Shown piece after piece: positions 10,815-58,957 of a stretch of DNA of 64,000 bases. Source of the DNA: Felis catus (taxonomy: Eukaryota); contig NC_058368.1 in assembly GCF_018350175.1 (NCBI RefSeq), positions 87,670,001 to 87,734,000 on the forward strand. Direction: 5' to 3'. Position 1 is the first letter of the stretch. The number at the start of each line of letters is the position of its first letter. The notes under the pieces are model-generated. The model was not told the origin of the DNA and did not search any database. It saw only the letters and a program-made list of their open reading frames with translations. Position numbers and translations under genes: made by a program.

Positions 10815-11203
10815 CAGTCAGCTTGGTCTCTGTAACAAATACCACAGACTGGGAGGTTTAAACAACGCATTTATTTTTTTCCCAGTCCTGGGAACTGGAA
10901 GCATGAGATCCAGGTGTGGCAGGGCTGGTTCCTCCTGAGGCCTCTCTCCCCTGGCGTGCACATGCCATCTCCTCCCCATGTCCTTACACGGTTGTCCCCT
11001 GTGTGTGTCTATGCCCTGATCCCCTCTTCTATTAAGGACGCCAGTCACATGGGATCAGATGGGATCAGGGCCTACCCTAGTGACTTCCTTTTACCTGAAC
11101 CACCTCTGTAAAGACCCCATCTCCAAATATAGCCCCATTCTGAGGCCCTGGGGGTTGGAGCTTCAACATGTGAACTGGAGGGGACATGATTCAGCCCATA
11201 ATA
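10815..11203 (-). mobile_element. MaLR (MLT1-like) solo LTR in the 3' region of copy A
   Basis: Reverse complement of 59036-59425 with typical MLT1 motifs. Confidence 0.8.
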
Positions 11204-11340
11204 TTTTGTCAGTATTTTACAGGGAAGGAAAGTGGAGATAACACAGGATCATCCAGAAAGGTGCACCCTTGTATGTGATCTAGCTGGGACTTAGAATGGA
11301 TACATCTCCCCCAAATCGGTGACAGGCTGGAGCAGAGAGA

Positions 11341-11938
11341 TCATGGGTCTTGCTGGAGGAGGGTTCCCACCCTGTCCTGTCCCTCACCCTGAGGAGGCCC
11401 CAAGGCCTCTGGGGGCTGCCATTCTGAACAGATGGTTAGGAGGCTGGGGTCGTGTGTCCAGAGGCAGAAGAATGGCCTCAGGGGTGCCGAGAAGGACAGT
11501 CCAGAGAACGCGTAGACGAAGGATCCATTGCCCATGCTGTAGAAGGAGATTCTGCCTGCATCACAGTCCAGGAAAACGCCCACACGATGCAGGGGCTCCG
11601 AAGGGTGCAGGCGAACTCTTGGGAAGGCAAGTGCCCAGAACCTCTCCTTGTACAGATCCAGGGCCCAGAGTCCGTGCTGGGGGGCCTTGAGGATCCTTCC
11701 CGTCCAATCCAAGCTCTCCAGACACATGCCCAGGTTCCGGGTCTTCCTGTGCCCCACCTGGACCTCCCAGTAATACCCCCCAGCTGAGAACTGCTCCCGA
11801 CCCAGCACACAGGGGTCCCTGTTGAATCTGCTGGGTTGTCGGGCAGCTCTTGTTCAAAGAACAGCCGCCTCACAGTCTTCCTGTCCTCAGAGAGAGCGAG
11901 CTTGGGGCTTGCAGTGTCAGGGTCCAGGGATGGGCTCA
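11341..11938 (-). pseudogene. BTNL10: Copy A B30.2/PRYSPRY exon, frameshifted
   Basis: SLDPDTASPKL in one frame and YYWEVQV...HRVGVFLD...LRPFF in another; gacaacccagc vs aacgcccccagc in copy B. Confidence 0.88.
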
Positions 11939-12715: not shown

Positions 12716-13518
12716 AGGGAGCAGGCCCTTCCAGCCCCCAGCATGGTCCTCACCATAGATGATGTCCTCTGGCCAGCCTGAAATGAAACAGAAAGATGTG
12801 AAACTGTAGGGTTTGCACTGACCAGATGGGGCGAAAGCTCATGTTCTGTGAAGCTAAGTCAAAACAGGATGTAATGAGCTCTCGCAGGGACCCTGTAAAG
12901 GAAGAGCAAATATCCCTTCTTCAGTGCCCAAAAAACAATCCAGGTCACTGTATTCCTAGGGAAAGGTTTTGTGGGGCGTAGCCTAATGGCCCAGCCTTCC
13001 CATGTCTGTCATAAAGACACATCTCTGACCTGTTCCCCAGATCGGGGCCTGACAGCTATGAGCAAGGACACAGGAGGCAGGGAGGAGAGCAGACAGGCGA
13101 GTGGAATGATCCATACTGATGATGATCCCCGCGCTCACAACAAGATCCTCTCAGGTGACAGGCTTGCTGCTGTATTTGTTGCTTGAGCATTTTCAGGATG
13201 TTGTCATCACCCTCGACTGATAGACTTTCCCAGGTTCAAGCTCACATCTGTCTCCACAGCAGAGACCCGCCAGTCTTCCCCAAGTCACCCAGTGAAGAGC
13301 AGCCAAGCACCTCTTAGTGATGGAGGATCTCACTGGGCATATGGTAGGTGGGCAGTCCCTGAGCTGGGGCCTGGGCAGGTCTCTCCCATTCCTCCTGGGC
13401 TTGAGGGTACACAAAGGAGGGACTTCATGCTGGGCTCTGCACGAGTGCCCTGGCTGGAAGGAGCACGTCTGTCCCACTGGGGCCTGCTTACCTTGGGACA
13501 GCTGTTCCTCTTCTCTGT

Positions 13519-13682
13519 TCAGTCTCTCTTCTTCCAGCTGCACCCTATTCCTGTTCCTCTGACGTTTCCAGAAAAGACAGGTGGCTCCTGCCACAAGACA
13601 GCTGCTGCAAGCCCCACCACAATGAGGATCACAGGCACCACTGCCCTCCATGCCATTGATGGGAAATTTTTGGGCACCTGGC
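13519..13682 (-). CDS. BTNL10: Copy A TM exon up to the premature stop (GQVPKNFPSMAWRAVVPVILIVVGLAAAVLWQEPPVFSGNVRGTGIGCSWKKRD*)
   Basis: Acceptor ctcttttag. Insertion gtcttgtggca relative to copy B shifts the frame; the original frame (ATCLFWKRQR...EEQLSQG) is still visible. Confidence 0.85.
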
Positions 13683-13849
13683 CTAAAAGAGAGTTTGGGG
13701 AGGCAAGAATACCAGGGTAAGAGAGCACCTGTGTTCTTAGGGCACACAAGCCACAGGGTTCATGGGTCAGGGGGCAGGTGCTTGTGAACTAACCTGACAT
13801 GACCTGAAAACATGTGTGTGCCTTTGTACAGACAGACATGGACACACAG

Positions 13850-14700
13850 GAGAGAGATGGTAGACAAATGGCAAAAGGTTACATACTGAGTGGGTCTGCA
13901 TTCTGTGTATCATTCCTGCAAATTTTCTGAAACTTGAGGTTGTTTAGAAGGAAAATTTTATACAGAGTGAAACTTGGAAGCCCCCAGGTGTCCTTCAGAA
14001 TGTGAATGCATAAACAGGCTGTGGTTCATCCAGACAAGGGAATACTGTTTACTGCCAATACGAAAGGAGCTATCCGTGCAGCCACTGTGGAGAAGATGAT
14101 GGACGTTCCCCCCCAAAATAAAAATAGAACTACCACATCAATCCACTCCTGGGTATTAATCCAAAGAAAATAAAAATATTAACTGAGAAAGATAATGCAC
14201 CCCTACATTTATTGCAGTGTTATTTACAATAGTCAAGATATGGAAACAGCCCAAGTGTCCACCAATGGATGAAAGGATAAAGAAAAAAATATGTATTTGT
14301 ACAACGGGATGCTATTCAGCTATAAACAAGAAGGAAATCCAGGCATTTTCTACAATATGGATGCACCTGAGGGCACTTTGCTAAGTGAAGTTAGACAGGG
14401 GAAAATGTATAGAGTCTCACAGATAAGTGAAATCTAAAATGAAACAAAACACCATCCAAACCTCCAGAAAACCAGAAAGCCTAGTTTATAGATGCAGAGA
14501 ACAGATTGGTGGTTTCCAGAGGTGAAAGATCGGGAAGCTAATGGGTGAAGAGGGTCAAAGGTGCAAACTTCCAGTTTAAAATAAGACCCAGGGAGGTGAC
14601 ATACAGCATGGAAACTATAGTTAACTACTGTGTTGTGTAGTTGGAAGCTGACAGAGACTAGATCTCACAAGGTCTCGTCACAAGGAACTATGCGGAGTAT
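13850..14700 (+). mobile_element. Old L1 3' fragments in the IgC-TM intron of copy A (mirrored at ~51700-52550)
   Basis: ttattgcagtgttatttacaatagtcaagatatggaaacagcccaagtgtcc and L1M-type 3' UTR sequence. Confidence 0.75.
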
Positions 14701-14768: not shown

Positions 14769-15050
14769 CAGGTAGGTGGCTCTTGGTCTCCATCCTCTTC
14801 TGGAGGAGGGGGTTGGAGATAGAGCAAGAAAGATTCCCCACGTCCCTGTCCCAGACAATCACATTGGACACCACCGCAAAGAGGCCCGTTGTTGGCGACA
14901 CTGTGAGGTTGGTCGTGGAAGGTAGGGTCTGTCCCCTGAAGTCTCTCCACTCCACCTGGGGCTCTGGGTACCAGCCCTCCGAGGTGCACTCTGCCCTGAT
15001 ACCTTCATCCTGGCCAGCTCGCACTTGGATTCTGGGCTCAGAGCCCAGCC
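14769..15050 (-). CDS. BTNL10: Copy A IgC exon (282 nt)
   Basis: GLGSEPRIQV...AECTSEGWYPEPQVEW...LSCSISNPLL, the butyrophilin IgC signature. Confidence 0.93.
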
Positions 15051-16200: not shown

Positions 16201-16294
16201 CCTTTGCAGAGAGGCTGTAGGACAGAAGCTTCAGAAGGAGGAAGATGATGGAGCAGCTGGGTGGAAAGATGTCTCGACCTTGTGTGTTTGCCAT
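16201..16294 (-). CDS. BTNL10: Copy A signal peptide exon (MANTQGRDIFPPSCSIIFLLLKLLSYSLSAK)
   Basis: Kozak cagccATGG, hydrophobic core, gtagga donor. Confidence 0.88.
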
Positions 16295-20932: not shown

Positions 20933-23390
20933 TTTTTTTTTGATATGAAATTTATTGTCGTATTGGTTTCCATACAACACCCAGTGCTCATCCCAACAGG
21001 TGCTCTCCTCAATATCCATCACCCACCCTCCCCTCACTCCCACCCCCCATCAACCCTCATTTTGTTCTCACTTTTTAAGAGTCTCTTATGGTTTGGCTCC
21101 CTCCTTCTCTAACTTTTTTTTCCTTCCCCTCCCCCATGGTCTTCTGTTAAGTTTCTCAGGATCCACATAACAGTGAAAACTTATGGTATCTTTTTCTCTG
21201 TATGACTTCTTTCACTTAGCATAACATTCTCCAGTTCAATCCACGTTGCTACAAAAGGACATATTTCATTCTTTCTCATTGCCATGTAGTATTCCATTGT
21301 GTATATAAACCACATTTTCTTTATCCACTCATCAGTTGATGGACATTGAGGCTCTATCCATAATTTGGCTATTGTTGAAGATGCTGCTATAAACATTGGG
21401 GTACAAGTGCCTTATGCCTCAGCACTCCTGTATCCCTTGGGTGAATTCCTAGCAGTGCTACTGCTGGGTCATAGGGTAGATCTGTTTTTAATTTTTGGAC
21501 GAACATCCACACTGTTTTCCAGAGCTGCTGCACCAGTTTGCATTCCCACCAAAAATGCAGGAGGGTTCCAATTTCTCCACATCTTTGTCAGGATGTATAG
21601 TCTCCTGATTTTGTTCATTTTAGCCACTCTGACTGGCATGAGGTGATACCTCGGTGTGGTTTTGATTTGTATTTCCCTGATGAGGAGCAACGTTGAGCAT
21701 CTTTTCATGAGCCTGTTGGCCATCTGAATGTCTTCTTTAGAGAAATGTCTATTCGTGTGTTCTACCCATTTCTTCACTGGATTATTTGTTTTTCGGGTGT
21801 GGAGTTTGGTGAGTTCTTTATAGATTTTGGTTGCTAGCCCTTTGTCCGATATGCAAATATCTTTTGCAAATATCTTTTACCATTCCGTCGGTTGCCTTTT
21901 AGTTTTATTGATTGTTTCCTTTGCAGTGCAGAACCTTTTAATCTTCATGAGGTCCCAATCATTCATTTTTGCTTTTAATTCCCTCGCCTTTGGGGATGTG
22001 TAAATAAGAAAGTGCTGCAGCTGAGGTCAGAGAGGTTTTTTCCTGCTTTCTCGTCTAAGGTTTTGATGGTTTCCTGTCTCACATTCAGATCCTTTATCCA
22101 TTTTGAGTTTGTTTTTGTGAATGGTGTAAGAAAGTGGTCTAGTTTCATTCTTCTGCATGTTGCTGTCCAGTTCTCCCAGCACCATTTGTTAAAGAGATTG
22201 TCTTTTTCCATTGGATCTTCTTTCCTGCTTTGTCAAAGATTAGTTGGCCATACTTTTGTGGGTCCAATTATGGGGTCTCTATTCTGTTCCATTGGTCTAT
22301 GTGTCTGTTTTTGTGCCAAAACCATGCTGTCTTGATGGTTACAGCCTTGTAGTAGAGTCTCAAGTCTGGCATTGTGATGCCTCCTGCTTTGGTCTTCTTC
22401 TTCAAAATTACTTTGGCTATTCAGGCTTTTTGTGGTTCCATACAAATTTTAGGATTGCTAGTTCCAGCTTAGAGAAGAATGCTGGTGCAATTTTGATTGG
22501 GATTGCATTGAATGTGTAGATAGCTTTGGGTAGTATTCACATTTTAACAATATTTATTCTTCCAATCCGTGAGCATGGAATGTTTTTTCCATTTCTTTAT
22601 ATCTTCTTCAAGTTCCTTCCTAAGCTTTCTATAGTTTTCAGCAGACAGAACTTCTACATCTTTGGTTAGGTTTATTCCTAGGTATTTTATGATTCTTGTT
22701 GCAATTGTGAATGGAATCGTTTTGTTTTTTTTTTTTTTTTGGCTTTCTGTTGCTTCCTTGTTAGTGTATGAGAATGCAACTGATTTCTGTACATTGATTT
22801 TGTATCCTGCGACTTTGCTGAATTCACATATCAGTTCTAGCAGACTTTTGGTGGAGTCTATCAGTTTTTCCATGTATAATATCATGTCATCTGCAAAAAG
22901 TGAAAGCTTAACTTCATCGTTGTCAATTTTTATGCATTTGATTTCCTTTTGTTGTCTGATTGTTGATGCTAGAACTTCCAACACTATGTTAAACAACAGC
23001 GGTGAGAGTGGATATCCTTGTCATGTTCTGATCTCAGGGAGAAAGCTCTCAGTTTTTCCCCATGGAGGATGATATTAGCTGTGGGCTTTTCATAAATGAC
23101 TTTTATGATGCTTAAGTATGTTCCTTCTATCCCTACTTTCTTGAGGATTTTTATTAAGAGAGGATGCTGAATTTTGTCAAATGCTTTTTCTGCATCGATT
23201 GATAGGATCATATGGTTCTTTTCTTTTGTTTTATTAATGTGATGTATCACACTGATTGATTTGCAAATGTTGAACCAGCCCTGCAGCCCAGGAATGAATC
23301 CCACTTGATCATGGTGAATAATTCTTTTTATATGCTGTTGAATTCGATTTGCTAGTATCTTATGGAGAATTTTTGCATCCATATTCATCT
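20933..23390 (-). mobile_element. 5'-truncated young L1 (ORF2 RT to poly(A))
   Basis: Minus ORFs 22984-23403, 22544-22996 and 21975-22211; T-tail at ~20933-20941. Confidence 0.96.
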
Positions 23391-23959: not shown

Positions 23960-26900
23960 AACAAAGCTAACGAATTGATCAAAACCTATTTCAGCAATAT
24001 AACTGAACAAGAATTTACAGTAATAGTCATAAAATTAATGTTGGGCTTGAAAAAAGCATAGAGGACAACAAAGGATCTATTGCTACAGAGATCAAGGGAC
24101 CAAGAAATAGTCATGAGGAGCTAAAAAATGCTATAAATGAGCTGCAAAATAAAATGGGGGAGACCACAGTATGGATTGAAGAGGCAGAGGAGAGAATAGG
24201 TGAATTAGTAGATAAAATTATGGGAAAAAAAGGAAACTGAGAAAAAGAAATAAAACAATTCAGGAGTATGAGGGGAGAATTAGAGAACTAAGTGATGCAA
24301 TTAAATGGAACAATATCCGTATCATAGGAATTCCAGGGGAGGAAGAGAGAGAGAAAGGGGATGAAGGTATACTTGAACAAATCATACCTGAGAACTTACC
24401 TGATCTGGGGAAGGAAAAGGCATTGAAATCCAAGAGGCACAGAAACTCCCTTCAGATGTAACTTGAATCGATCTTCTGCATGACATATTGTATTGAAACT
24501 AGCAAAATACAAGGATAAAGAGAGAATTTTGAAAGCAGCCAGGGATAAACAGGCTCTAACTTACAAAGGAAGACCCATAAGACTAGTGGCAGACATATCC
24601 ACTGAAACTTGACAGGCCAGAAAGGAATGGCAGAAAACCTTCAATGTGATGAACAGAAAAAATATGCAGCCAAGAATCTTTTATCCAGCAAGTCTGTCAT
24701 TCAGAATAGGAGAGATAAAGGTTTTCCCAAACAAACAAAAACTAAAGGAATTCATCAGCATTAAACCAGCCCTGCAAGAGATCCTAAGGGGGATTCTGTG
24801 AGTGAAATGTGGCAAGGACTTCAAACTACAAGACACCACTACAAGCATGAAACCTACAGACATCACAATAACTCTAAACCCATATCTTTCAATAATATAA
24901 CTGAATGTAAATGGACTAAATACTCCAACCAAAAGACATAGGGTATCACAATGGATAAAAAAAACAAGACCCATCTATTTGCTGTCTACAAGAGACTCTT
25001 TTACACCTGAGGACACCTTCAGATTGAAAGTGAGGGGATGGAGAACTATCTATCATGCTACTAGAAGCCAAAAGAAAGCTGGAGTACCATACTTATATCA
25101 GACAAAATGGACTTTAAATTAAAGGCTGTAACAAGAGATGAAGAAGGGCATTATAGAATAATTACATGATCTATCCATCAGGAAGAGCCAACAATTATAA
25201 ATGTCTATGTGCCAAATACGGGAGCCCCCAAATATATAAAACAATTAATCACAAACATAAGCAACCTTATTGATAAGAATGTGGTAATTGCAGGGGACTC
25301 TAATACCCCACTTACAGTAATGGATAGATCATCTAGACACAGGATCAATAAAGAAACAAGGGCCCTGAATGATACATTGGATCAGATGGACTTGACAGAT
25401 ATATTTAGAATTCTGCATCCCAAAGCAACAGAATATACTTTCTTCTCAAGTACACATGGAACATTCCTCAAGAGAGATCACATACTGGGTCACAAAACAG
25501 CCCTTCATAAGTATACAAGAATTGAGATCATACCATGCACCCATGCACACTTTCAGACAACAATGCTATGAAGCTCGAAATCAACCACAAGAAAAAGTCT
25601 GGAAAACCTTCAAAACCATGGAGGTTAAAGAATACACTACTAAAGAATGAATGGGTCAACCAGGCAATTAGAGAAGAAATTTAAAAAATATATGGAAACA
25701 AATGAAAATGAAAATACAACAATCCAAATGCTTTGGGATGCAGCAAAAGCAGTCCTGAGAGGAAAATACATTACAATCCAGGCCTATCTCAAGAAAGAAG
25801 AAAAATCCCAAACACAAAATCTAACAGCACACCTAAAGGAAATAGAAGCAGAACAACAAAAACACGCCACACCCAGCAGAAGAAGAGAAATAATAAAGAT
25901 CAGAGCAGGAATAAACAATATAGAATCTAAAAAAACCTGTAGAGCATATCAATGAAACAAAGAGTTGGTTTTTTGAAAAAAGTAAACAAAATTGATAAAC
26001 CTCTAGCCAGGCTTCTCAAAAAGAAAAGTGAGAAGACCCAAATAGATAAAATCATTGAATGAAAATGGAATTATCATAACCAATCCCTCAGAAATACAAG
26101 CAATTATCAGGGAATATTATGAAAAATTATATGCCAACAAACTGGACAACCTGGAAGAAATGGACAAATTCCTAAACACCCATACACTTCCAAACTCAAA
26201 CAGGAAGAAATAGAAAGCTTGAACAGACCCATAAACAATGAAGAAATTGAATCAGTTATCAAAAATCTCCCAACAAAGCAGAGTCCAGGACCAGATGGCT
26301 TCCCAGAGGAATTCTACCAGACATTTAAAGCAGAGATAATACCTACCCTTCTCAAGCTATTCCAAAAAATAGAAAGGGAGGGAATACATCCAGACTCATT
26401 CTATAAAGCCAGCATGACTTTGATTCCTAAACCAGACAGAGACCCAGCAAAAAAGAGAACTACAGGCCAATATCCCTGATGAATATGGATGCAAAAATTC
26501 TCCATAAGATACTAGCAAATCGAATTCAACAGCATATAAAAAGAATTATTCACCATGATCAAGTGGGATTCATTCCTGGGATTCAGGCCTGGTTCAACAT
26601 TTGCAAATCAATCAACGTGATACATCACATTAATAAAAGAAAAGATGAGAACCATATGATCCTGTCAATCGATGCAGAAAAAGCATTTGACAAAATTCAA
26701 CATCCTTTCTTAATAAAAACCCTCAAGAAAGTAGGGATAGAAGGAACATACTTAAACATCATAAAAGTCATTTATGAAAAGTCCACAGCTAATATCATCC
26801 TCCATGGGGAAAAACTGAGAGCTTTCTCCCTGAGATCAGGAACACGACAGGGATGTTCACTCTCACCACTGTTGTTTAACATAGTGTTGGAAGTTCTAGC

Positions 26901-28945
26901 ATCAACAATCAGACAACAAAAGGAAATCAAATGCATAAAAATTGACAACGATGAAGTTAAGCTTTCACTTTTTGCAGATGACATGATATTATACATGGAA
27001 AAACTGATAGACTCCACCAAAAGTCTGCTAGAACTGATATGTGAATTCAGCAAAGTCGCAGGATACAAAATCAATGTACAGAAATCAGTTGCATTCTTAT
27101 ACACTAATAATGAAGCAAGAGAAAGACAAATCAAGAATCTGATCCCATTTACAATTGCACCAGGAAGCATAAAATACCTAGGAATAAACCTAACCAAAGA
27201 TGTAGAAGTTCTGTCTGCTGAAAACTATAGAAAGCTTAGGAAGGAACTTGAAGAAGATATAAAGAAATGGAAAAACATCCCATGCTCACGGATTGGAAGA
27301 ATAAATATTGTTAAAATGTGAATACTACCCAAAGCTATCTACACATTCAATGCAATCCCAATCAAAATTGCACCAGCATTCTTCTCTAAGCTGGAACTAG
27401 CAATCCTAAAATTTGTATGGAACCACAAAAAGCCTGAATAACCAAAGTAATTTTGAAGAAGAAGACCAAAGCAGGGGGCATCACAATGCCAGACTTGAGA
27501 CTCTACTACAAAGCTGTAATCATCAAGACAGCATGGTTTTGGCACAAAAACAGACATATAGACCAATGGAATAGAATAGAGATCCCAGAATTGGACCCAC
27601 AAAAGTATGGCCAACTAATCTTTGACAAAGCAGGAAAGAAGATCCAATGGAAAAAAAGACAATCTCTTTAACAAATGGTGCTGGGAGAACTGGACAGCAA
27701 CATGCAGAAGAATGAAACTAGACCACTTTCTTACACCATTCACAAAAACAAACTCAAAATGGATAAAGGATCTGAATGTGAGACAGGAAACCATCAAAAC
27801 CCTACAGGAGAAAGCAGGAAAAAACCTCTCTGACCTCAGCCGCAGCACTTTCTTATTGACACATCCCCAAAGGCGAGGGAATTAAAAGTAAAAATGAATG
27901 ATTGGGACCTCATGAAGATAAAAAAGCTTCTGTGCAGCAAAAGAAACAATCAACAAAACTAAAAGGCAACCAACGGAATGGGAAAAGATATTTGCAAATG
28001 ACATATCGGACAAAGGGCTAGTATCCAAAATCTATAAAGAACTCACTCAACTCCACACCCGACAAACAAATAATCCAGTGAAGAAATGGGCAGAAAACAT
28101 GAGTAGACACTTCTTTAAAGAAGACATTCAGGTGGCCAACAGGCACATGAAAAGATGCTCAACATTGCTCCTCATCAGGGAAATACAAATCAAAACTACA
28201 CTCAGATATCACCTCACACCAGTCAGAGTGGTTAAAATGAACAAAACAGAAGACTATAGATGCTGGCGAGGATGTGGAGAAACGGGAACCCTCTTGCACT
28301 GTTGGTGGGAATGCAAACTGGTGCAGCAGCTCTGGAAAACAGTGTGGATGTTAGTCCAAAAATTAAAAACAGATCTACCCTAAGACCCAGCAGTAGCACT
28401 GCTAGGAATTTACCCAAGGGATTCAGGAGTGCTGAGGCATAAGGCACTTGTACCCCAATGTTTATAGCAGCACTCTCAACAATAGCTAAATTATGGATAG
28501 AGCCTCAATGTCCATCAACTGATGAATGGATAAAGAAATTGTGGTTTATATACACAATGAAATACTACATGGCAATGAGAAAGAATGAAATATGGTCTTT
28601 TGTAGAAACGTGGATGGAATTGGAGAGTGTTATGTTGAGTTAAATAAGTCATACAGAGAAGGACAGATTCCATATGTTTTCACTGTTATGTGGATCCTGA
28701 GAAACTTAACAGAAGACCATGGGGGAGGTGAAGGAAAGAAAAAATGGTTAGAGAGGGAGGGAGCCAAAACATAAGAGACTCCTACAAACTGAGAAAAAAC
28801 TGAGGGTTTGTGGTGGGTAGGAGGGAGGGGTGGGTGGGTGATGAGCATTGAGGAGGGCACCTGTTGGGATGAGCATGGGTGTTGTATGGAAATCAATTTG
28901 ACAATAAGTTTCATTAAAAAAAAAAGAAAAAGAAAAAAGAAAAAT
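23960..28945 (+). mobile_element. ~5 kb L1: partial ORF1, full-span disrupted ORF2, 3' UTR, poly(A)
   Basis: ORF1 C-terminal sequence to ~24800. ORF2 endonuclease (IAGDSNTPL) and RT (26479-27321, LFADDM). A-tail at 28916-28944. Confidence 0.96.
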
Positions 28946-50010: not shown

Positions 50011-50104
50011 ATGGCAAACACACAAGGTCGAGACATCTTTCCACCCAGCTGCTCCATCATCTTCCTCCTCCTGCAGCTTCTGTCCTGCAGCCTCTCTGCA
50101 AACG
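50011..50104 (+). CDS. BTNL10: Copy B signal exon (MANTQGRDIFPPSCSIIFLLLQLLSCSLSAN)
   Basis: cagccATGG Kozak; donor gtagga. Confidence 0.9.
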
Positions 50105-53100
50105 GTAGGAGAACTCTCCCCGCCCTCCCATGAGCCATGTTAGGAGGGAGCCTGTGCATGGACAGGAACACAGTAGGGGGCTAAACTTGATCCAAGCAGT
50201 CCTTCCCTGGGGACCCTGGACAAGGGCATGGGGTGTTGTTGAAGAACCTGCGTGTGGGTGGGTGTCCCCTGGGCGTGGGCAGGGGAAGACACTGGGCACA
50301 GGCTGGGGGGGGGCGGGGCGGGGACCCTGTGCCCAGTGGGGGGGGGGGGATGGCCCATGGTCTCCTCTCACCTGGCCTAACCCATGCTTTCTGCTATGAC
50401 CTCATAAGGGAAAGCCGATTTCTCTGTCTCTGGTCCTGGCCAACGGGTCCTGGCTATGGTGGGGGAAAGTGTGAAGCTGCGATGCCATCTGTCCCTCAAT
50501 ATCAGTGTGAAGGACATGGAGGTGAGGTGGTACAGGGAGGAGCTGTCCCCAGCTGTGCACCTGCGCAAGAAAGGCAAAGATGTGCCAGAAGAGCAGATGT
50601 GGCAGTACGAGGGCAGGACGACCTTCCTGATGTCCGGGCTGGCCCAAGACCAAGCTGTTCTGACCATACACAATGTCACGGTGTTCGATAACGGGACCTT
50701 CCACTGCAAGTTCAAAGATGGCATGGCGTCTGCGGAGACCACCCTGTGGCTAAGGGTGGCAGGTAAGGGTCGCCACTAGGACCTCTGGTCTCCCCTAGCA
50801 CTTATCGTCCAGCTGCAGATCGTCTGATCATGGCCCAAGCCTGAACGCATCCCACGGCATGCACTAACACATATGCAGTGGCCTGGGCCTGTCCCACAGC
50901 TTGCGCTAACATGTTTGGGCCTGGCCTGAGTGCGTCCCACAGCGTGCTCTAATGTGTTTGTGTCGGTCTACACGTGTCCCACAAAATGCGATAATGCACT
51001 AGAACAAGCAGGTTCTGGGCGCCTGGCTCATTTTCTAAGTCGGCTTCTGTTACCCACACTGACCCCAGAAAGAAAGGAAAGGAGGTATGGAGAGAAGGAA
51101 AGAGGCAGAAAGAGATACAGAGAGAAACAGGAAAAGACACCAATTTTGCAATACAGGAAAGGTATTTGATCTTCCTGGGCCTTTTCTGTTTTGTTCTGTG
51201 GTTTCTCAGAAGAGGGTAGCATATATGGCATATAAATATTACACAGAGCAAGTAGTCTGAAAAACCCTGATACCTGCTGGAAATTTTCAGGATCTGTGCT
51301 TTTCTGTCAGAAATGGTAATGGTTGCAGAGGCTGCAAAGCCTGTCTCTTCCCACAGGGCTGGGCTCTGAGCCCAGAATCCAAGTGCGAGCTGGCCAGGAT
51401 GAAGGTATCAGGGCAGAGTGCACCTCGGAGGGCTGGTACCCAGAGCCCCAGGTGGAGTGGAGAGACTTCAGGGGACAGACCCTACCTTCCACGACCAACC
51501 TCACAGTGTCGCCAACAACGGGCCTCTTTGCGGTGGTGTCCAATGTGACTGTCTGGGACAGGGACGTGGGGAACCTCTCTTGCTCTCTCTCCAACCCCCT
51601 CCTCCAGGAGAGGATGGAGGCCAAGATCTGCCTACCTGGTGAGTGTTCTGCTCCATCCAGGCCTCAAGAGCTCTGAGCACCCCAGACAGTCAGTAGTTAA
51701 TATCCAATACTCCGCATAGTTCCTTGTGACGAGACCTTGTGAGATCTAGTCTCTGTCAGCTTCCAACTATACAACACAGTAGTTAACTATAGTTTCCATG
51801 CTGTATGTCACCTCCCTGGGTCTTATTTTAAACTGGAAGTTTGCACCTTTGACCCTCTTCACCCATTAGCTTCCCGATCTTTCACCTCTGGAAACCACCA
51901 ATCTGTTCTCTGCATCTATAAACTAGGCTTTCTGGTTTTCTGGAGGTTTGGATGGTGTTTTGTTTCATTTTAGATTTCACTTATCTGTGAGACTCTATAC
52001 ATTTTCCCCTGTCTAACTTCACTTAGCAAAGTGCCCTCAGGTGCATCCATATTGTAGAAAATGCCTGGATTTCCTTCTTGTTTATAGCTGAATAGCATCC
52101 CGTTGTACAAATACATATTTTTTTCTTTATCCTTTCATCCATTGGTGGACACTTGGGCTGTTTCCATATCTTGACTATTGTAAATAACACTGCAATAAAT
52201 GTAGGGGTGCATTATCTTTCTCAGTTAATATTTTTATTTTCTTTGGATTAATACCCAGGAGTGGATTGATGTGGTAGTTCTATTTTTATTTTGGGGGGGA
52301 ACGTCCATCATCTTCTCCACAGTGGCTGCACGGATAGCTCCTTTCGTATTGGCAGTAAACAGTATTCCCTTGTCTGGATGAACCACAGCCTGTTTATGCA
52401 TTCACATTCTGAAGGACACCTGGGGGCTTCCAAGTTTCACTCTGTATAAAATTTTCCTTCTAAACAACCTCAAGTTTCAGAAAATTTGCAGGAATGATAC
52501 ACAGAATGCAGACCCACTCAGTATGTAACCTTTTGCCATTTGTCTACCATCTCTCTCCTGTGTGTCCATGTCTGTCTGTACAAAGGCACACACATGTTTT
52601 CAGGTCATGTCAGGTTAGTTCACAAGCACCTGCCCCCTGACCCATGAACCCTGTGGCTTGTGTGCCCTAAGAACACAGGCGCTCTCTTACCTTGGCTTTC
52701 TCGCCTCCCCAGACCCTCTTTTAGCTCAGTTGTCCAGAAGTTTCCCATCAATGGCGTGGAGGACAGTGCTGCCTGTGATCCTCATTGTAGTGGGACTTGT
52801 AGCAACTGGAGCCACCTGTCTTTTCTGGAAACGTCAGAGGGACAGGGATAGGGTACAGCTGGAAGAAGAGAAACTGTACAGAGAAGAGGAGCAGCTGTCC
52901 CAAGGTAAGCAGGCCCCAGTGGGACAGACGTGCTCCTTCCAGCCAGGGCACTCGTGCAGAGCCCAGCATGAAGTCCCTCCTTTGTGTACCCTCAAGCACA
53001 GGAGGAATGGGAGAGACCTGCCCAGGCCCCAGCTCAGGGACTGCCCACCTACCATATGCCCAGTGAGATCCTCCATCACTAAGAGGTGCTTGGCTGCTCT

Positions 53101-56100
53101 TCACTGGGTGACTTGGGGAAGACTGGCGGGTCTCTGCTGTGGAGACAGATGTGAGCTTGAACCTGGGAAAGTCTATCAGTCGAGGGCGATGACAACATCC
53201 TGAAAATGCTCAAGCAACAAATACAGCAGCAAGCCTGTCACCTGAGAGGATCTTGTTGTGAGCGCGGGGATCATCATCAGTATGGATCATTCCACTCGCC
53301 TGTCTGCTCTCCTCCCTGCCTCCTGTGTCCTTGCTCATAGCTGTCAGGCCCCGATCTGGGGAACAGGTCAGAGATGTGTCTTTATGACAGACATGGGAAG
53401 GCTGGGCCATCAGGCTACGCCCCACAAAACCTTTCCCTAGGAATACAGTGACCTGGATTGTTTTTTGGGCACTGAAGAAGGGATATTTGCTCTTCCTTTA
53501 CAGGGTCCCTGCGAGAGCTCATTACATCCTGTTTTGACTTAGCTTCACAGAACATGAGCTTTCGCCCCATCTGGTCAGTGCAACCCTACAGTTTCACATC
53601 TTTCTGTTTCATTTCAGGCTGGCCAGAAGACGTCATCTATGGTGAGGACTATGTAAGGGCTGGAAGCGTCTGCTCCCTGAATGTTTGTTTATGTGTGCAC
53701 ACGTGTGTGTGCAGTGTGCATGTATGTGTGTATGTGTGAGTGCTGTGTGTGCATGGTATACATTTATGTGTTCACCTGTGTGCCATATGCACATTTGTTA
53801 GTGTGTGCACATGCACATGTGTGGTGCTTTGTGCACATAAGTACACATGTGTTCTCGTGTGTGCAGTGTGTGCATGTGTATTTATGTGTGCATGTGTATG
53901 CACATGCACTTGTGTCTGTGCATATATGTGCATGTGTGTGCACGCATGTGTTTGTATGTGCACGTGCACTTGTGGACACGTATTGCACACATGTGTGCAC
54001 ATGTACTTGTGTGTGTATGCATTGCACACATGTACTTGTGTGTGTGCCCACGTGCACATGTGTATTTGTGTGTGCACATGTACTCATGTGTGTGTGTATG
54101 CATGTGCATGTATGTGTGTGTTCTCCTTTCTATTCCAGGGTGCAGAAATGCTGTGCTAAATGCTGGTTCTATGGCTGTAAACACCAAGTTTTGCTGCCCT
54201 GAGAGACCTTAGCTCCTGTTTACTGCCTGAGGGACAGACAGGCTGCAGAGCGCGGGCAGCGAGAGAGCTAGCTCTTCCAAGGAACAGCCACTGTGGGGGA
54301 CACTGTTAGCACAGAGAGTGCAGAGCCAGTGCCTTTCTGCCCCAGGGCACCATATAGGTGGGAAGCATGGGGGGAGAGTCTGGCTGTGGAGAGGGACCCC
54401 CAAGGACAGGAGGGGCAGTACTGCGAGCCACGAGCTGGGCAGATGAAAGCAGGAAGGGGATCTGGGAACACCTGTCCCACCACAGCCACATGGTGAGGGC
54501 CCAGGAAGAGACAGACAGAAGCCAGTCTCCATTCATTCATGCAGTTACAACCATGACCAGATATCTTCTGTGCAAGCAACTGGCCTCCATTAGTTAATGT
54601 ACAGCTTCCTCCTGTCCTCATGGAGCATAGAGTCTATATGGGGATGTGAGCCACAAGTCAGCATTTGTTTTTTTAATTATTAAATCTGGAATAACTGTGA
54701 TAGGAAAGAGCCAGAATACTAGGAGGATGGCCAGGAGCATGTTCAAGTGGGATGTCCAGACCCCTGGGAATGGTGGGGTGATGGGGTGGGTGATGGCAAG
54801 ACCACAGCTATACGAGGAGGGGAGAACTCGCCCCTGTGGCAGGGAGAGTGGGGTCTGTGATGTGTGACAGCTTGGCATGTGGAAGAGGTACCAACAGGGC
54901 AGGAAGGCTTGTGTGTGTCCCTGCAGAGCCTGGGAGGCTGAGGTAGAGGCCTGGACTTTACATGAAGCACCGTGCAATGTGAGTGAGAACCTGTAAGCAG
55001 GGGAGCAGCACTGATGGAGGAGAGGATACAGCCCCGAGATGGGTCCTGGGGCCACAAGTAGCACAGTCCAGAAGGGGCAAGGCAGAGGGAGCAGCCCAAG
55101 GTGACCCCCAGCTGCATAAGTCTCTGGCCCTTCGGGCTCCATCTAACAGAAGGTTTGGGGCAGATTTGGGCCAAATAAGTGAAAATCACCATGGACCTCC
55201 TAAGACTGAGCTGTTCTCACACATCCTGCTAAGGACGTCAGATGAATCATTGGATATGCGAGTCTGGAACTCTCAGGAGAAATCGGGACTAGAGACAGGA
55301 ATTGGGGTCCATGGCAAATATCTGGTATAACTGAACGCGTGAGTGCTACATTTTTTGCTACACCTAAAATTATTCTTTAAAAATTTCTCTTTGGAAAAGA
55401 ATTAAGATTTTTTAAAAAGGGAAGATACAGGGAAACAAGAAAGATCCAAGATCTAGCGTTGGAGAACCCTGGTATTTGAAGGTTAGAGCAGTGGTTGTGG
55501 GAGGGCCAAGGGAGACTTCACCATGGAAATGTGCAGGTGCAGTGTGTTGAAGGAGCATCAACTTTCGTGCACCTGAGAAGTAGAGTCAGGTCAACCCGGG
55601 AAAATGGCCCAGAAAAACTGGCAAGCATGGTACAAAGAGAGGCGTCTCCTGTGGAGAGAACTGGGAGGGAGGTCTCAAATTTATTGCCTGTGTAGTTGAG
55701 CTAAGACTTGGTGAGTGGGGAATGGGAAGGTTCTGTTTGTGTTTGCTGTGGTTTTACTTTGAGGTCCGTGGCAGGAGAGCATGCCTGTTGCCTAAAAGGA
55801 ACCATGTGGTGTGAAGATGCCTGAAGCCTGAAGGGAGGAAGAAAACCAGTAAGAGAATGATGATGCAGAGAAGATAGTCAGCAGCTGTGGATGGGATGGA
55901 CCACAGGTCTACACTGTGGCCAGGTGGGGGGTGGTGTGCAAGGGTCCAGCACATACGTGATGGACAGCACAGGAGAAGATTCACAGCCAGGTGTGGGTGG
56001 TGTGCAAGAGGAATCAGTGTACACAGGACACAGACTGAGATCCAGGGACAGGTGTGGGTGGTGTTCAAGAGAAGCCAGTGTACCAGGACACAGGATGAGC

Positions 56101-58957
56101 TCCAGGGACAGGTGTCAGTGTGTGCAAGAGGAGTCAGTGCACAAGGACACAGGATGAGCCCCAGGGACAGGTGCGGGTGGTGTGCAAGAGGAGTCAGCGC
56201 AGAAGGACACAGGATGAGCCCCAGATACAGGTATGGGTGGTGTGCAAGAGGAATCAGTGGACAAGGACACAGGATGAGCTCTAGGGACAGGTATGGGTGT
56301 GTACAAGAGGAGTTAGCACACAAGGACACAGGCAGTGCTCCAGGGACAGGTGTGGGTGGTGTACAAGAGGAATCAGTGGACAAGGACACAGGGTGAGCTC
56401 CAGGGACAGGTGTGAGTGTGTACAAGAGGAGTTAACACACAAGGACACAGGCAGTGCTCCAGGGACAGGTGTGGGTGGTGTGCAAGAGGAGTCAGCACAC
56501 AGAACACAGGATGAGTTCCAGGGACAGGTGTGGGTGGTGTGCCAAAGGAATCAGTTCAGAAGGACACAGGATGAGCCCCAGGGACAGGTGTGGGTGGTGT
56601 ACAAGAGGAGTCAGCACACAAGGACACAGGATGAGCTCCAGGGACAGGTGTGGGTGTGTACAAGAGGAGTCAGCACACAAGGACACAGGATGAGCTCCAG
56701 TGACAGGTGTGGGTGACAGGTGTGCAAGAGGAATCAGTGCCCAAGGGCACAGGTGGTTCTCCACAGTCAGGTGTGCTGTGGTGTGCAAGAAGTCACTATA
56801 GAATATTTTTGTATCAATGTCAATTGTATGGTTTTGATCCTATTACTGTGGGTTATATGAGATGCTATCATGGGCATATTGTGTATGGTATTTTGCAACC
56901 TCTTTGTAAGTCTCAAACTGTTTTTTGACATGAATATTTTTTAATTATGAGGGAATTTGGAATAGAAGGAGCCGGGCCCATTGTTCAGCTAGTGAGTCCA
57001 TGTTTGGCCATCATAGATATGAACATGGGTGGGCTCAATCTGCATGGCCCAGACTCTACAGGGAAAGGGTTTGCATGGAGCAGAGGGAGAAGACTTCAGG
57101 AAGCAGCAATGAGAAATCGGGGAGAACATTTAGTCTTTGCTGGAAAGTGAAAGGGAGCAGGGTTCCTTCCAGAAGGAAGTAGAGACCGGGGAGAAAGTTG
57201 TGGTTCTGTTAGGAGGAGAGCGTGTGTGCTGTCCAGCTGACAGGGATGGATGGTCAGGAAACATGAGTGTCTGCGGCATCGTATGCAGACCCCAGCAACC
57301 AGCAGCATGCCTACTGAATGGGCAAGGGTGGACACCAGCCAGGAGGTTTCTGTTGTCGTGAAGGTGCCTGCACAGGCAGCTGGGGCTCCCAGCTGATCCC
57401 CACCTTCCCTGCCTCTCAGGTGTAGACAGACCCTCCCCCAGGTGACATGATGAGGGCCTGAGGGCTCTGAGAAGGATGGTGGGACAGGAGAGAAGGGATC
57501 TGTTTTGGAAGGTGTTCATCTCAGTTTGTGAGGCTGCTAAGGTGTCTCTCAGGGTTTTCCAGATGGGATCTTCCCTTCAGTGGTTGACCCCAGAGCTGTC
57601 CAATGGCATCAATGCACCTGTGACCTCATCTCATGTCACCCTGTCTCTTCACGTGTCCTCCTATGTCTTTCTCTCTATCTCTGTCTCCCTGTGTCTTTCT
57701 CTGTGTCTCTCTTCCTCTGTCTCTGTCTGTGTCCATACCTTTCTCAATCTCCCTCTATCTCTCTTCCTGTGTCTCCCTATGTGTATCTCTCCTTGTTCTC
57801 CTTGTCTCTCTGTCTCTGTCTCTCTCTTTCCTTGCCTCTCTCTGTCTCTGTCTCTCTATCTCTCTCTCTATGTCTACCTGTGTCTGTCTGTCCCTGTCTC
57901 TGTCTCTCACGTGCACGCCCACATAGCCCCCCCACACACAAGTGCATATGCACACACACATGCACATCCACATCCATCCTGACACACGGGGCCCTGGGAG
58001 CAATGCCTATCTCACAGTGTGCCCCCCTGTCCCCTCATAGGAATCCCCCCTGGCTCTCCCTGGCTCCCCCTGGAGCCGCCTCTGCTGCCTTGGGATGGCC
58101 TGTTTGCACAGGATCCTGGACAGAGAAAGGGACTCACAGGGAGCCGCCTCCGCTGCTCTGGGATGGCCTGTGTGCACAGGGTCCTGGACAGAGAACGGGG
58201 ACGCACAGGGATTCCCAGGGAGACATGGTTCCACCTCCATTCAGGAGCACAGGTTGGGGACCCCAACCCCTAAACCTGATCCTCTCCTCTTCCCGCAGTG
58301 AGCCCATCCCTGGACCCTGACACTGCAAGCCCCAAGCTCGCTCTCTCTGAGGACAGGAAGACTGTGAGGCGGCTGTTCTTTGAACAAGAGCTGCCCAACG
58401 CCCCCAGCAGATTCGACCGGGACCCCTGTGTGCTGGGCCTGGAGCAGTTCTCAGCTGGGAGGTATTACTGGGAGGTCCAGGTGGGGCACAGGAAGGCCTG
58501 GAACCTGGGCGTGTGTCTGGAGAGCTTGGATCGGAAGGGAAGGATCCCCAAGTCCCCTCAGCACGGACTCTGGGCCCTGGAGCTGTACAAGGAGGGGTTC
58601 TGGGCACTTGCCTTCCCAAGAGTTCGCCTGCACCTTTCGGAGCCCCTGCATCGTGTGGGCGTTTTCCTGGACTGTGATGCAGGCAGAATCTCCTTCTACA
58701 GCGTGAGCAATGGATCCCTCATCTACGCGTTCTCTGGACTGTCCTTCTCGGCACCCCTGAGGCCATTCTTCTGCCTCTGGACACATGACCCCAGCCCCCT
58801 GACCATCTGCTCAGAACGGCAGCCCCCAGAGGCCTTGGGGCCTCCTCAGGGTGAGGGACAGGACAGGTGGGAACCCTCCTCCAGCAAGACCCATGATCTC
58901 TCTGCTCCAGCCTGTCACCAATTTGGGGGAGATGTATCCATTCTAAGTCCCAGCTAG
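50011..58957 (+). CDS. BTNL10: Butyrophilin-like protein copy B (BTNL10-like), intact; 7 coding exons, 1620 nt, 539 aa: signal-IgV-IgC-TM-juxtamembrane-B30.2
   Basis: join(50011-50104,50409-50762,51357-51638,52725-52904,53618-53641,54139-54165,58299-58957). All introns GT-AG and phase 1; frame open. Motifs KADF, WQY.GRTTF, EPRIQV, DFRGQ and FWKRQR match human BTNL10 as I recall it. Confidence 0.9.
50409..50762 (+). CDS. BTNL10: Copy B IgV exon
   Basis: GKADFSVSGPGQRVLAMVGESVKLRCHL...DNGTFHCKF...LWLRVA; donor gtaagg. Confidence 0.94.
51357..51638 (+). CDS. BTNL10: Copy B IgC exon
   Basis: GLGSEPRIQV...CTSEGWYPEPQVEW...LSCSLSNPLL; acceptor cccacag, donor gtgagt. Confidence 0.94.
52725..52904 (+). 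CDS. BTNL10: Copy B transmembrane exon
   Basis: AWRTVLPVILIVVGLVATGATCLFWKRQRDRDRVQLEEEKLYREEEQLSQ; donor gtaagc. Confidence 0.92.
53618..53641 (+). CDS. BTNL10: Copy B 24-nt micro-exon (GWPEDVIY)
   Basis: tttctgtttcatttcag acceptor, gtgagg donor, phase 1-1; present in copy A at 12754-12777. Confidence 0.65.
53680..54120. repeat. Degenerate (TG/CA)n tract between the micro-exons of copy B
   Basis: Directly visible. Confidence 0.9.
54139..54165 (+). CDS. BTNL10: Copy B 27-nt pre-B30.2 micro-exon (GCRNAVLNA)
   Basis: Acceptor tattccag, weak gttcta donor; a 27-nt phase 1-1 exon is typical of BTN genes; present in copy A at 12326-12352. Confidence 0.7.
55985..56790. repeat. ~60-bp minisatellite, ~13 units, in the last intron of copy B
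   Basis: Unit caggtgtgggtggtgtgcaagaggagtcagcacacaaggacacaggatgagctccaggga. Confidence 0.93.
57640..57910. repeat. CT-rich low-complexity tract
   Basis: Directly visible. Confidence 0.85.
58299..58957 (+). CDS. BTNL10: Copy B B30.2/PRYSPRY exon plus C-terminal tail
   Basis: LDPDTA, RFDRDPCVLG, GRYYWEV, WNLGVC, RVGVFLD, ISFY and LRPFF motifs; acceptor tcccgcag; TAG at 58955-58957. Confidence 0.95.

Follow-up and report, generated by a model that had tools for sequence, protein, structure and literature searches.

The window analysed here, a 64,000-nucleotide stretch of Felis catus contig NC_058368.1, was compared with itself and revealed a large inverted duplication, with one arm at approximately 10.4-20.9 kb (minus strand, hereafter copy A) and the other at 45.2-59.8 kb (plus strand, hereafter copy B). 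A butyrophilin gene is present on each arm, and both genes correspond to cat BTNL10. The IgV domain of copy B shares 100% identity with Felis catus BTNL10 XP_006927521.4, and domain search recognised IgV, IgC, PRY and SPRY domains in this copy. Residues 1-296 of copy A are identical to RefSeq XP_044918081.1 (P0065); its ectodomain gave V-set and C2-set_3 matches above the cut-off and its best matches are named BTNL10, which identifies it as a BTNL10 butyrophilin. The PRY and SPRY domains (B30.2, the signalling domain) found in copy B are missing from the copy A product that ends in KKRD (P0005), and the coiled region is also missing from the canonical reading of copy A. Judged by its predicted domains, copy A is a truncated paralogue and a non-canonical member of BTNL10. 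The features of the two copies are the following:

16201..16294, minus strand: exon 1 of copy A, with the ATG and the leader peptide, 94 nt; the start matches XP_044918081.1
15560..15913, minus strand: IgV exon of copy A, 354 nt, 10.5% diverged from copy B, A-versus-B dN/dS 0.28, invariant sites avoided since the felids radiated
14769..15050, minus strand: IgC exon of copy A, 282 nt, 3.2% diverged, homogenised with copy B
13492..13682, minus strand: transmembrane (TM) exon of copy A, 191 nt, acceptor TTTTAG/G and donor AAG/GTAAGC
13591..13644, minus strand: hydrophobic stretch AVVPVILIVVGLAAAVLW, 18 residues, membrane helix predicted by hydropathy
13589..13599, minus strand: 11-nt frame-shifting insertion of copy A, from the A/B alignment and felid copy A models
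13522..13533, minus strand: KKRD, with lysines at positions -4 and -3, on the old-frame Glu-Glu-Glu-Arg codons
13519..13521, minus strand: stop codon TGA of copy A, whose A (13519) is a T in copy B
13505..13727, no strand: A/B divergence island, 26 substitutions and the indel in 223 nt
12754..12777, minus strand: small exon 5 of copy A, 24 nt, 3' UTR in the KKRD isoform
10875..11938, minus strand: last exon of copy A, the former B30.2, up to the first AATAAA at 10875, with a second frameshift and an old-frame dN/dS of 1.05
50011..58957, plus strand: copy B, intact BTNL10 and inverted partner, with exons 50011-50104, 50409-50762, 51357-51638, 52725-52904, 53618-53641 and 58299 to the stop

The second break of copy A is a 1-nt deletion near 11837, within B30.2, and cat copy A thus carries two mutations that break the open reading frame, the 11-nt insertion and this deletion, as pseudogenes do.

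Other differences between the arms were observed. Approximately 3.8 kb (54330-58101) of the last intron of copy B are unique to this copy and include a tandem array of ~60-bp units at 55918-56795. One G is missing near the end of B30.2 in cat copy B (~58866, against ~11371 in copy A), giving a longer C-terminus (QDRWEPSS... versus QDRVGTLL...), and each of the two ends is found among felid models of either copy. An N-glycosylation sequon of IgC present in copy B is lost in cat copy A (NVT to NVI, residue 212, in the exon at 14769-15050, minus strand). An interspersed repeat, presumably a LINE-1, is present beside and between the arms in three copies of ~2.5 kb that are 89-93% alike (3-2550, 20934-23389 and 26389-28930).

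A preliminary description of this DNA had proposed that an insertion in the TM exon of copy A shifts the frame, keeps a membrane helix and creates a KKxx C-terminus. The exon is indeed 191 nt long in copy A (13682-13492) and 180 nt in copy B (52725-52904), the 11 inserted nucleotides occupy 13599-13589 (the placement is ambiguous by one base), and the shifted frame reads AVVPVILIVVGLAAAVLW-QEPPVFSGNVRGTGIGCSWKKRD up to the stop at 13521-13519, in a product of 297 residues. Both splice sites of the exon are canonical, and the product of the canonical copy A splice agrees in its KKRD tail with the UniRef cat model A0ABI7ZPW4 (P0005). As to the predicted helix, on the Kyte-Doolittle scale the best 17-residue mean is 2.99 in copy A and 2.58 in copy B, and the best 19-residue mean 2.44 and 2.50, respectively, but the stretch comprises ~18 residues against 22 in copy B, being ~4 shorter. 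The basic residues that follow the stretch in copy B (KRQR) are missing in copy A, where QEPP is found, and the tail behind the predicted helix has 23 residues and ends in KKRD. In the 5' part of this exon, dN/dS between copies A and B is 0.96.

Two other origins of the length difference were rejected. The insertion recurs in the models of other species, which argues against a sequencing or assembly error; we also counted against such an error the presence of the words of this stretch at 0.96-0.97 in 12 DNA runs that carry no flag as a possible source, a measure that is not site-level. In six RNA-labelled metatranscriptome runs the words were present at 0.09-0.81, and these runs, which may be DNA, were not used as evidence of expression. 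A 1-nt deletion from an ancestral exon of 192 nt was rejected as well: copy A gained bases, since non-felid orthologues have the exon length of copy B.

The C-terminal KKRD has its lysines at -3 and -4, the positions that define a KKxx motif, and lysine position was described as the main determinant of KKxx retrieval (PMC2120234). These lysines are the glutamate codons GAA-GAA-GAG read in the shifted frame, in which copy B would encode SWKKRNC..., and the dilysine, as read from the codons, is therefore a latent by-product of glutamate codons that copy B also has. The stop, in turn, depends on a single T to A change at 13519, a Tyr to Asn replacement in the old frame (TAC to AAC), without which the shifted frame would run on into the last exon, as far as its first codon. 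When the shifted frame of copy B was taken as a stand-in for the sequence before the stop, 1 of 19 single-base changes that create a stop exposed KKxx or KxKxx (5%, or 3.6% when weighted), suggesting a chance of ~5% for a KKxx per stop event, a figure that is post hoc and covers one motif class only.

According to the preliminary description, the stop lies 78 nt upstream of the last junction and makes the spliced mRNA a predicted target of nonsense-mediated decay (NMD). The distance is not borne out, as it needs a 27-nt exon (12352-12326) with the donor GTTCCA. We rejected this exon, which is present in none of the 31 BTNL10-type models that have the small exon and B30.2 (28 join the two directly and 3 have other inserts). 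Because it is absent from the orthologue models, the end of the stop lies 27+24 = 51 nt from the last junction, or 27 nt when the transcript omits exon 5. In a stop-codon scan of LMNA, NMD was reported to peak ~71 nt upstream of the last junction, with a smooth fall from there towards it (PMC12776119). With the exon set of the orthologues the stop of copy A sits on the 50-55 nt boundary, a borderline position with no clear escape, and the NMD caveat is weaker than had been claimed. Since NMD is graded around ~50 nt and the stop lies at 51 nt, a partial escape of the copy A mRNA seems plausible. Intronic polyadenylation just after the TM exon was rejected, since introns 4-5 of copy A contain neither AATAAA nor ATTAAA.

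Other forms of the transcript can be read from the locus. An AATAAA is present inside intron 3 of both copies (14213 in copy A, minus strand; 52194 in copy B, plus strand) and could end a soluble IgV-IgC transcript, resembling several database models: those of cat, tiger and Lynx canadensis (P0004, P0006 and P0063) read through after IgC. The TM exon is skipped in P0002 and in dog P0015. A second AG, 5 nt into the TM exon (13677, minus strand), opens the whole old frame, with no real TM; P0061, P0030 and P0066 use the frame of this +5 acceptor, and the 26 residues that precede the insertion in it are identical in cat, P0061, P0066 and P0030. Skipping and the +5 acceptor each lead in frame into the last exon, where in cat both forms meet the second frameshift in B30.2. 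XP_044918081.1 avoids the stop by leaving the TM exon 32 nt before the canonical donor (13524/13523, minus strand), at a site that starts with ACTGAA and not GT, which could reflect either an annotation work-around or genuine non-canonical splicing.

The insertion is not private to one cat. Other felids were viewed through protein models (for the main cluster, 15 of its 30 members), in which the insertion is visible as CLVAG in copy A models that are frame-corrected or spliced around the frameshift. CLVAG in the old frame, together with EEERLN, is present in copy A models of Prionailurus viverrinus, Leopardus geoffroyi, Panthera leo, P. onca and Neofelis nebulosa, five named felids that represent both subfamilies, and in P0066, which clusters with the tiger model. 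Among the models listed, the insertion and the stop-making change were thus found in 6/6 non-cat copy A lineages whose models include the TM exon; three further copy A models end before this exon or skip it and are uninformative. EEERLN occurs in at least eight copy A models, versus EEEKLY in at least 15 copy B models. Whether the tail has lysine or arginine is set by synonymous (third) positions of the old frame, invisible in protein models, and EEERLN alone cannot show KK. The new-frame tail was not found in short proteins, a search at longer lengths gave only cat and Neofelis models, and the finding of no non-cat protein with this tail in these searches is weak evidence. Since the insertion and the Tyr to Asn change are found on both sides of the Felinae/Pantherinae divide, they predate the split between cat and tiger, placed at ~10.8 My (PMC3778509), and the duplication would be older than crown felids. 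No break of the ectodomain is seen in eight of the nine copy A models, although corrected models could conceal one; the jaguar model (P0030) lacks a normal IgV start.

The two copies differ at 26 sites and by the indel between 13727 and 13505, which comprise the TM exon plus its acceptor, whereas the flanks differ at 0 of 909 nt before and at 4 of 737 nt after this island. Both IgC domains share species-specific residues, which points to repeated gene conversion, and patches of A type and B type cross in both directions near the TM exon. A-type residues were noticed in IgV of Neofelis copy B and in TM of Prionailurus and Lynx rufus copy B (in the set of models P0050, P0045, P0056, P0047, P0061 and P0030), and B-type stretches in B30.2 of Prionailurus and Leopardus copy A and in exon 5 of jaguar copy A. 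Because these B-type stretches sit in copy A models, conversion from B to A occurs nearby. As judged by this comparison of the copies, the TM exon resisted gene conversion. In exon 5 of the red and green opsins, a peak of divergence amid conversion was taken as a mark of selection (PMC3924837). We ran a toy simulation of conversion with assumed parameters, starting from the observed island and leaving copy A free to be overwritten, and report the 40 of 48 parameter cells that had at least eight runs with clean flanks. With symmetric conversion and no selection on copy A, 15 of the 20 usable cells had no run in which the island was still intact at 11 My, and the best cell had 7 such runs of 14. 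With conversion biased from A to B (10% B-to-A), also without selection on copy A, the island survived in up to 22/32 and 7/9 runs. The island favours selection on both copies without proving it.

Selection on copy A was examined by parsimony on a felid tree, with P0002 placed by assumption and after masking residues 1-64 of jaguar and two short stretches of misannotation. On matched trees of seven taxa, IgV underwent 21 changes in copy A versus 8 in copy B, a ~2.6-fold faster change (p 0.024) that fits relaxation as well as diversification. Nevertheless, in nine copy A sequences only 1 of 25 IgV changes fell on invariant sites (36 of 117, set by 15 non-felid orthologues), where ~30% were expected. 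This avoidance has p 0.001-0.002 when CpG and transition mutability are weighted, and five definitions of invariance give p values between <0.0001 and 0.023 when events are counted and between 0.0005 and 0.046 when sites are counted. The doubly frameshifted B30.2 of cat copy A, used as negative control, behaved as if neutral, with four of nine changes at invariant sites and 39% expected, and differs from IgV with a Fisher p of 0.012, or 0.034 when the pantherine changes are pooled. In pantherine copy A, changes at invariant sites of B30.2 are also rare (2 of 11-14, p 0.05-0.2), so that either the test leans to avoidance or other isoforms matter. The A-versus-B dN/dS is 0.28 for IgV and 1.05 for B30.2 in the old frame, and neutral evolution, as expected of a pseudogene, was found in copy A for B30.2 only and not for IgV. 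Over the 28 codons from the insertion to the stop, one change is visible in seven lineages, and it alters the old frame and is silent in the new one; 5.5-7.5 changes would be expected (p 0.005-0.03, with dates and tree lengths of 40-55 My; p 0.16, not significant, without dates). Because IgV avoids invariant sites, unlike the dead B30.2, copy A is probably a live paralogue lacking B30.2 and built like BTN3A2. The earlier suggestion that it is not a dead gene gains real support from the sharing among felids, the IgV avoidance relative to the B30.2 control and the island; the ER-decoy or dominant-negative role proposed along with it is a putative one.

Three readings of copy A have to be weighed. 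That copy A is a pseudogene, or nearly one, with copy B shielded against taking up the frameshift, the repair of copy A prevented by heterology or by one-way conversion, and KKRD a product of chance, seems rather unlikely to us. It accounts for the two frameshifts in cat, for the faster change of IgV and for the abnormal IgV start of jaguar P0030, it agrees with the ~5% post hoc chance of a KKxx per stop event and with the description of human BTNL10 as a pseudogene (PMC11969061), and the island can persist with no selection on copy A if conversion is biased from A to B or blocked by mismatch. It does not, however, explain why IgV changes avoid invariant sites when those of the dead B30.2 do not, the B-type stretches in copy A of Prionailurus, Leopardus and jaguar speak for B-to-A conversion nearby, and the ectodomain is visibly unbroken in eight of nine models, subject to what correction of the models could conceal.

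These observations on IgV fit equally well a copy A that is alive with a soluble working product (an IgV-IgC form ended in intron 3, a TM-skipped form or the +5 form), in which the frameshift would just disable the membrane form and KKRD would be incidental. We consider this unlikely too. The polyadenylation signal at 14213, the in-frame entry of the skipped and +5 forms into the last exon, the database models that use read-through, skipping and the +5 frame, and the partly spared B30.2 of pantherine copy A all speak in its favour, but annotation may have produced these models to get round the frameshift, and in cat the skipped and +5 forms run into the second frameshift. In addition, models that show a TM have an unchanged TM core, both splice sites of the exon are canonical, and the sole change seen from the insertion to the stop affects the old-frame reading and leaves the new one unaltered.

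The reading that we tentatively prefer, with a probability we would put somewhat short of even, is that copy A is a live membrane-anchored BTNL10 with no B30.2, whose IgV is divergent, whose IgC is nearly identical to that of copy B and whose KKRD tail is predicted to be ER-biased. BTNL10 would have undergone inverted duplication before crown felids, the 11-nt insertion and the frame-closing TAC to AAC change would have been fixed before Felinae and Pantherinae separated, and B30.2 would then have turned into 3' UTR and decayed. Conversion would have kept introns and IgC homogenised and selection on both copies would have kept the IgV and TM exons distinct, and the mRNA, its stop lying at the 50-55 nt boundary, would likely escape NMD in part. 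If it works like BTN3A2, the product would use its IgC to influence how copy B or another butyrophilin is trafficked, or else would present a different IgV. Binding of copy A to copy B is suggested by this BTN3A2 analogy only; prediction of a complex between copy B (33-300) and copy A (60-324), run without alignments or controls, gave a score of 0.05 and a mark of 0.34 and is no evidence either way. The fuller proposal, in which a frameshift that became fixed before the living cats diverged exposed a latent dilysine ER-retrieval signal in glutamate codons and produced a regulator lacking B30.2 that is kept apart by selection against conversion, controls the surface delivery of its parent and constitutes an independent, frameshift-born counterpart of primate BTN3A2, we hold to be quite improbable.

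The cat BTNL10 entries (XP_006927521.4 for copy B; XP_044918081.1 and A0ABI7ZPW4 for copy A) have a common leader-IgV-IgC-TM layout, and those for copy A give conflicting products and no function, the felid frameshift being masked in 'LOW QUALITY' corrected models. Human BTN3A2 is described as lacking B30.2, pairing with BTN3A1 through IgC and needing lysine ER motifs (PMC5798315), and by sequence copy A resembles it in being a paralogue that lacks B30.2, has nearly the same IgC as its partner and a short tail, and carries a lysine motif of ER type. The motif of BTN3A2 is nevertheless internal (KRKKIQ, 313-318 of 334), and for BTN3A2 both the heteromer and a function were demonstrated (PMC5798315), whereas copy A is known from its sequence, its motif is C-terminal and born of a frameshift, its IgV is unlike that of its partner and it belongs to a different gene lineage. 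KKxx cargo of COPI, such as yeast Wbp1, has like copy A lysines at -3 and -4 on a short tail behind a hydrophobic stretch (PMC2120234), but in copy A the membrane topology, COPI binding and conservation of the lysines across species are putative. The opsins share with BTNL10 one exon far more diverged than the flanking introns in nearby duplicates (PMC3924837); both opsin copies are known to work, whereas the BTNL10 peak can be mimicked by one-sided purging in copy B with biased conversion.

Among the matches listed by a full-text search of the BTNL10 and butyrophilin literature, which covered titles and abstract openings and had subscription papers and supplements outside its range, no felid BTNL10 duplicate was reported, and nothing on BTNL10 function was found among the matches listed (PMC11969061 and PMC6017450 included). 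The frameshift is real, old and felid-wide and lies in a paralogue that is probably alive, a KKxx function of its tail is a possibility, and annotation pipelines, which 'repair' it or splice around it in several cat genomes, hide a common felid feature. Human BTNL10 is reported to be a pseudogene (PMC11969061); cats retain two copies. If copy A is expressed, the felid pair of a full-length and a B30.2-less protein would be a natural system for BTNL10 function, would test whether the division of labour between BTN3A1 and BTN3A2 evolved more than once, and would provide a clear example, open to dating, of a frameshift that created a trafficking signal. In horse (Equus caballus), which has several copies, the BTNL10 paralogue P0026 (283 residues) ends a few residues after TM, without B30.2, a possible parallel truncation.
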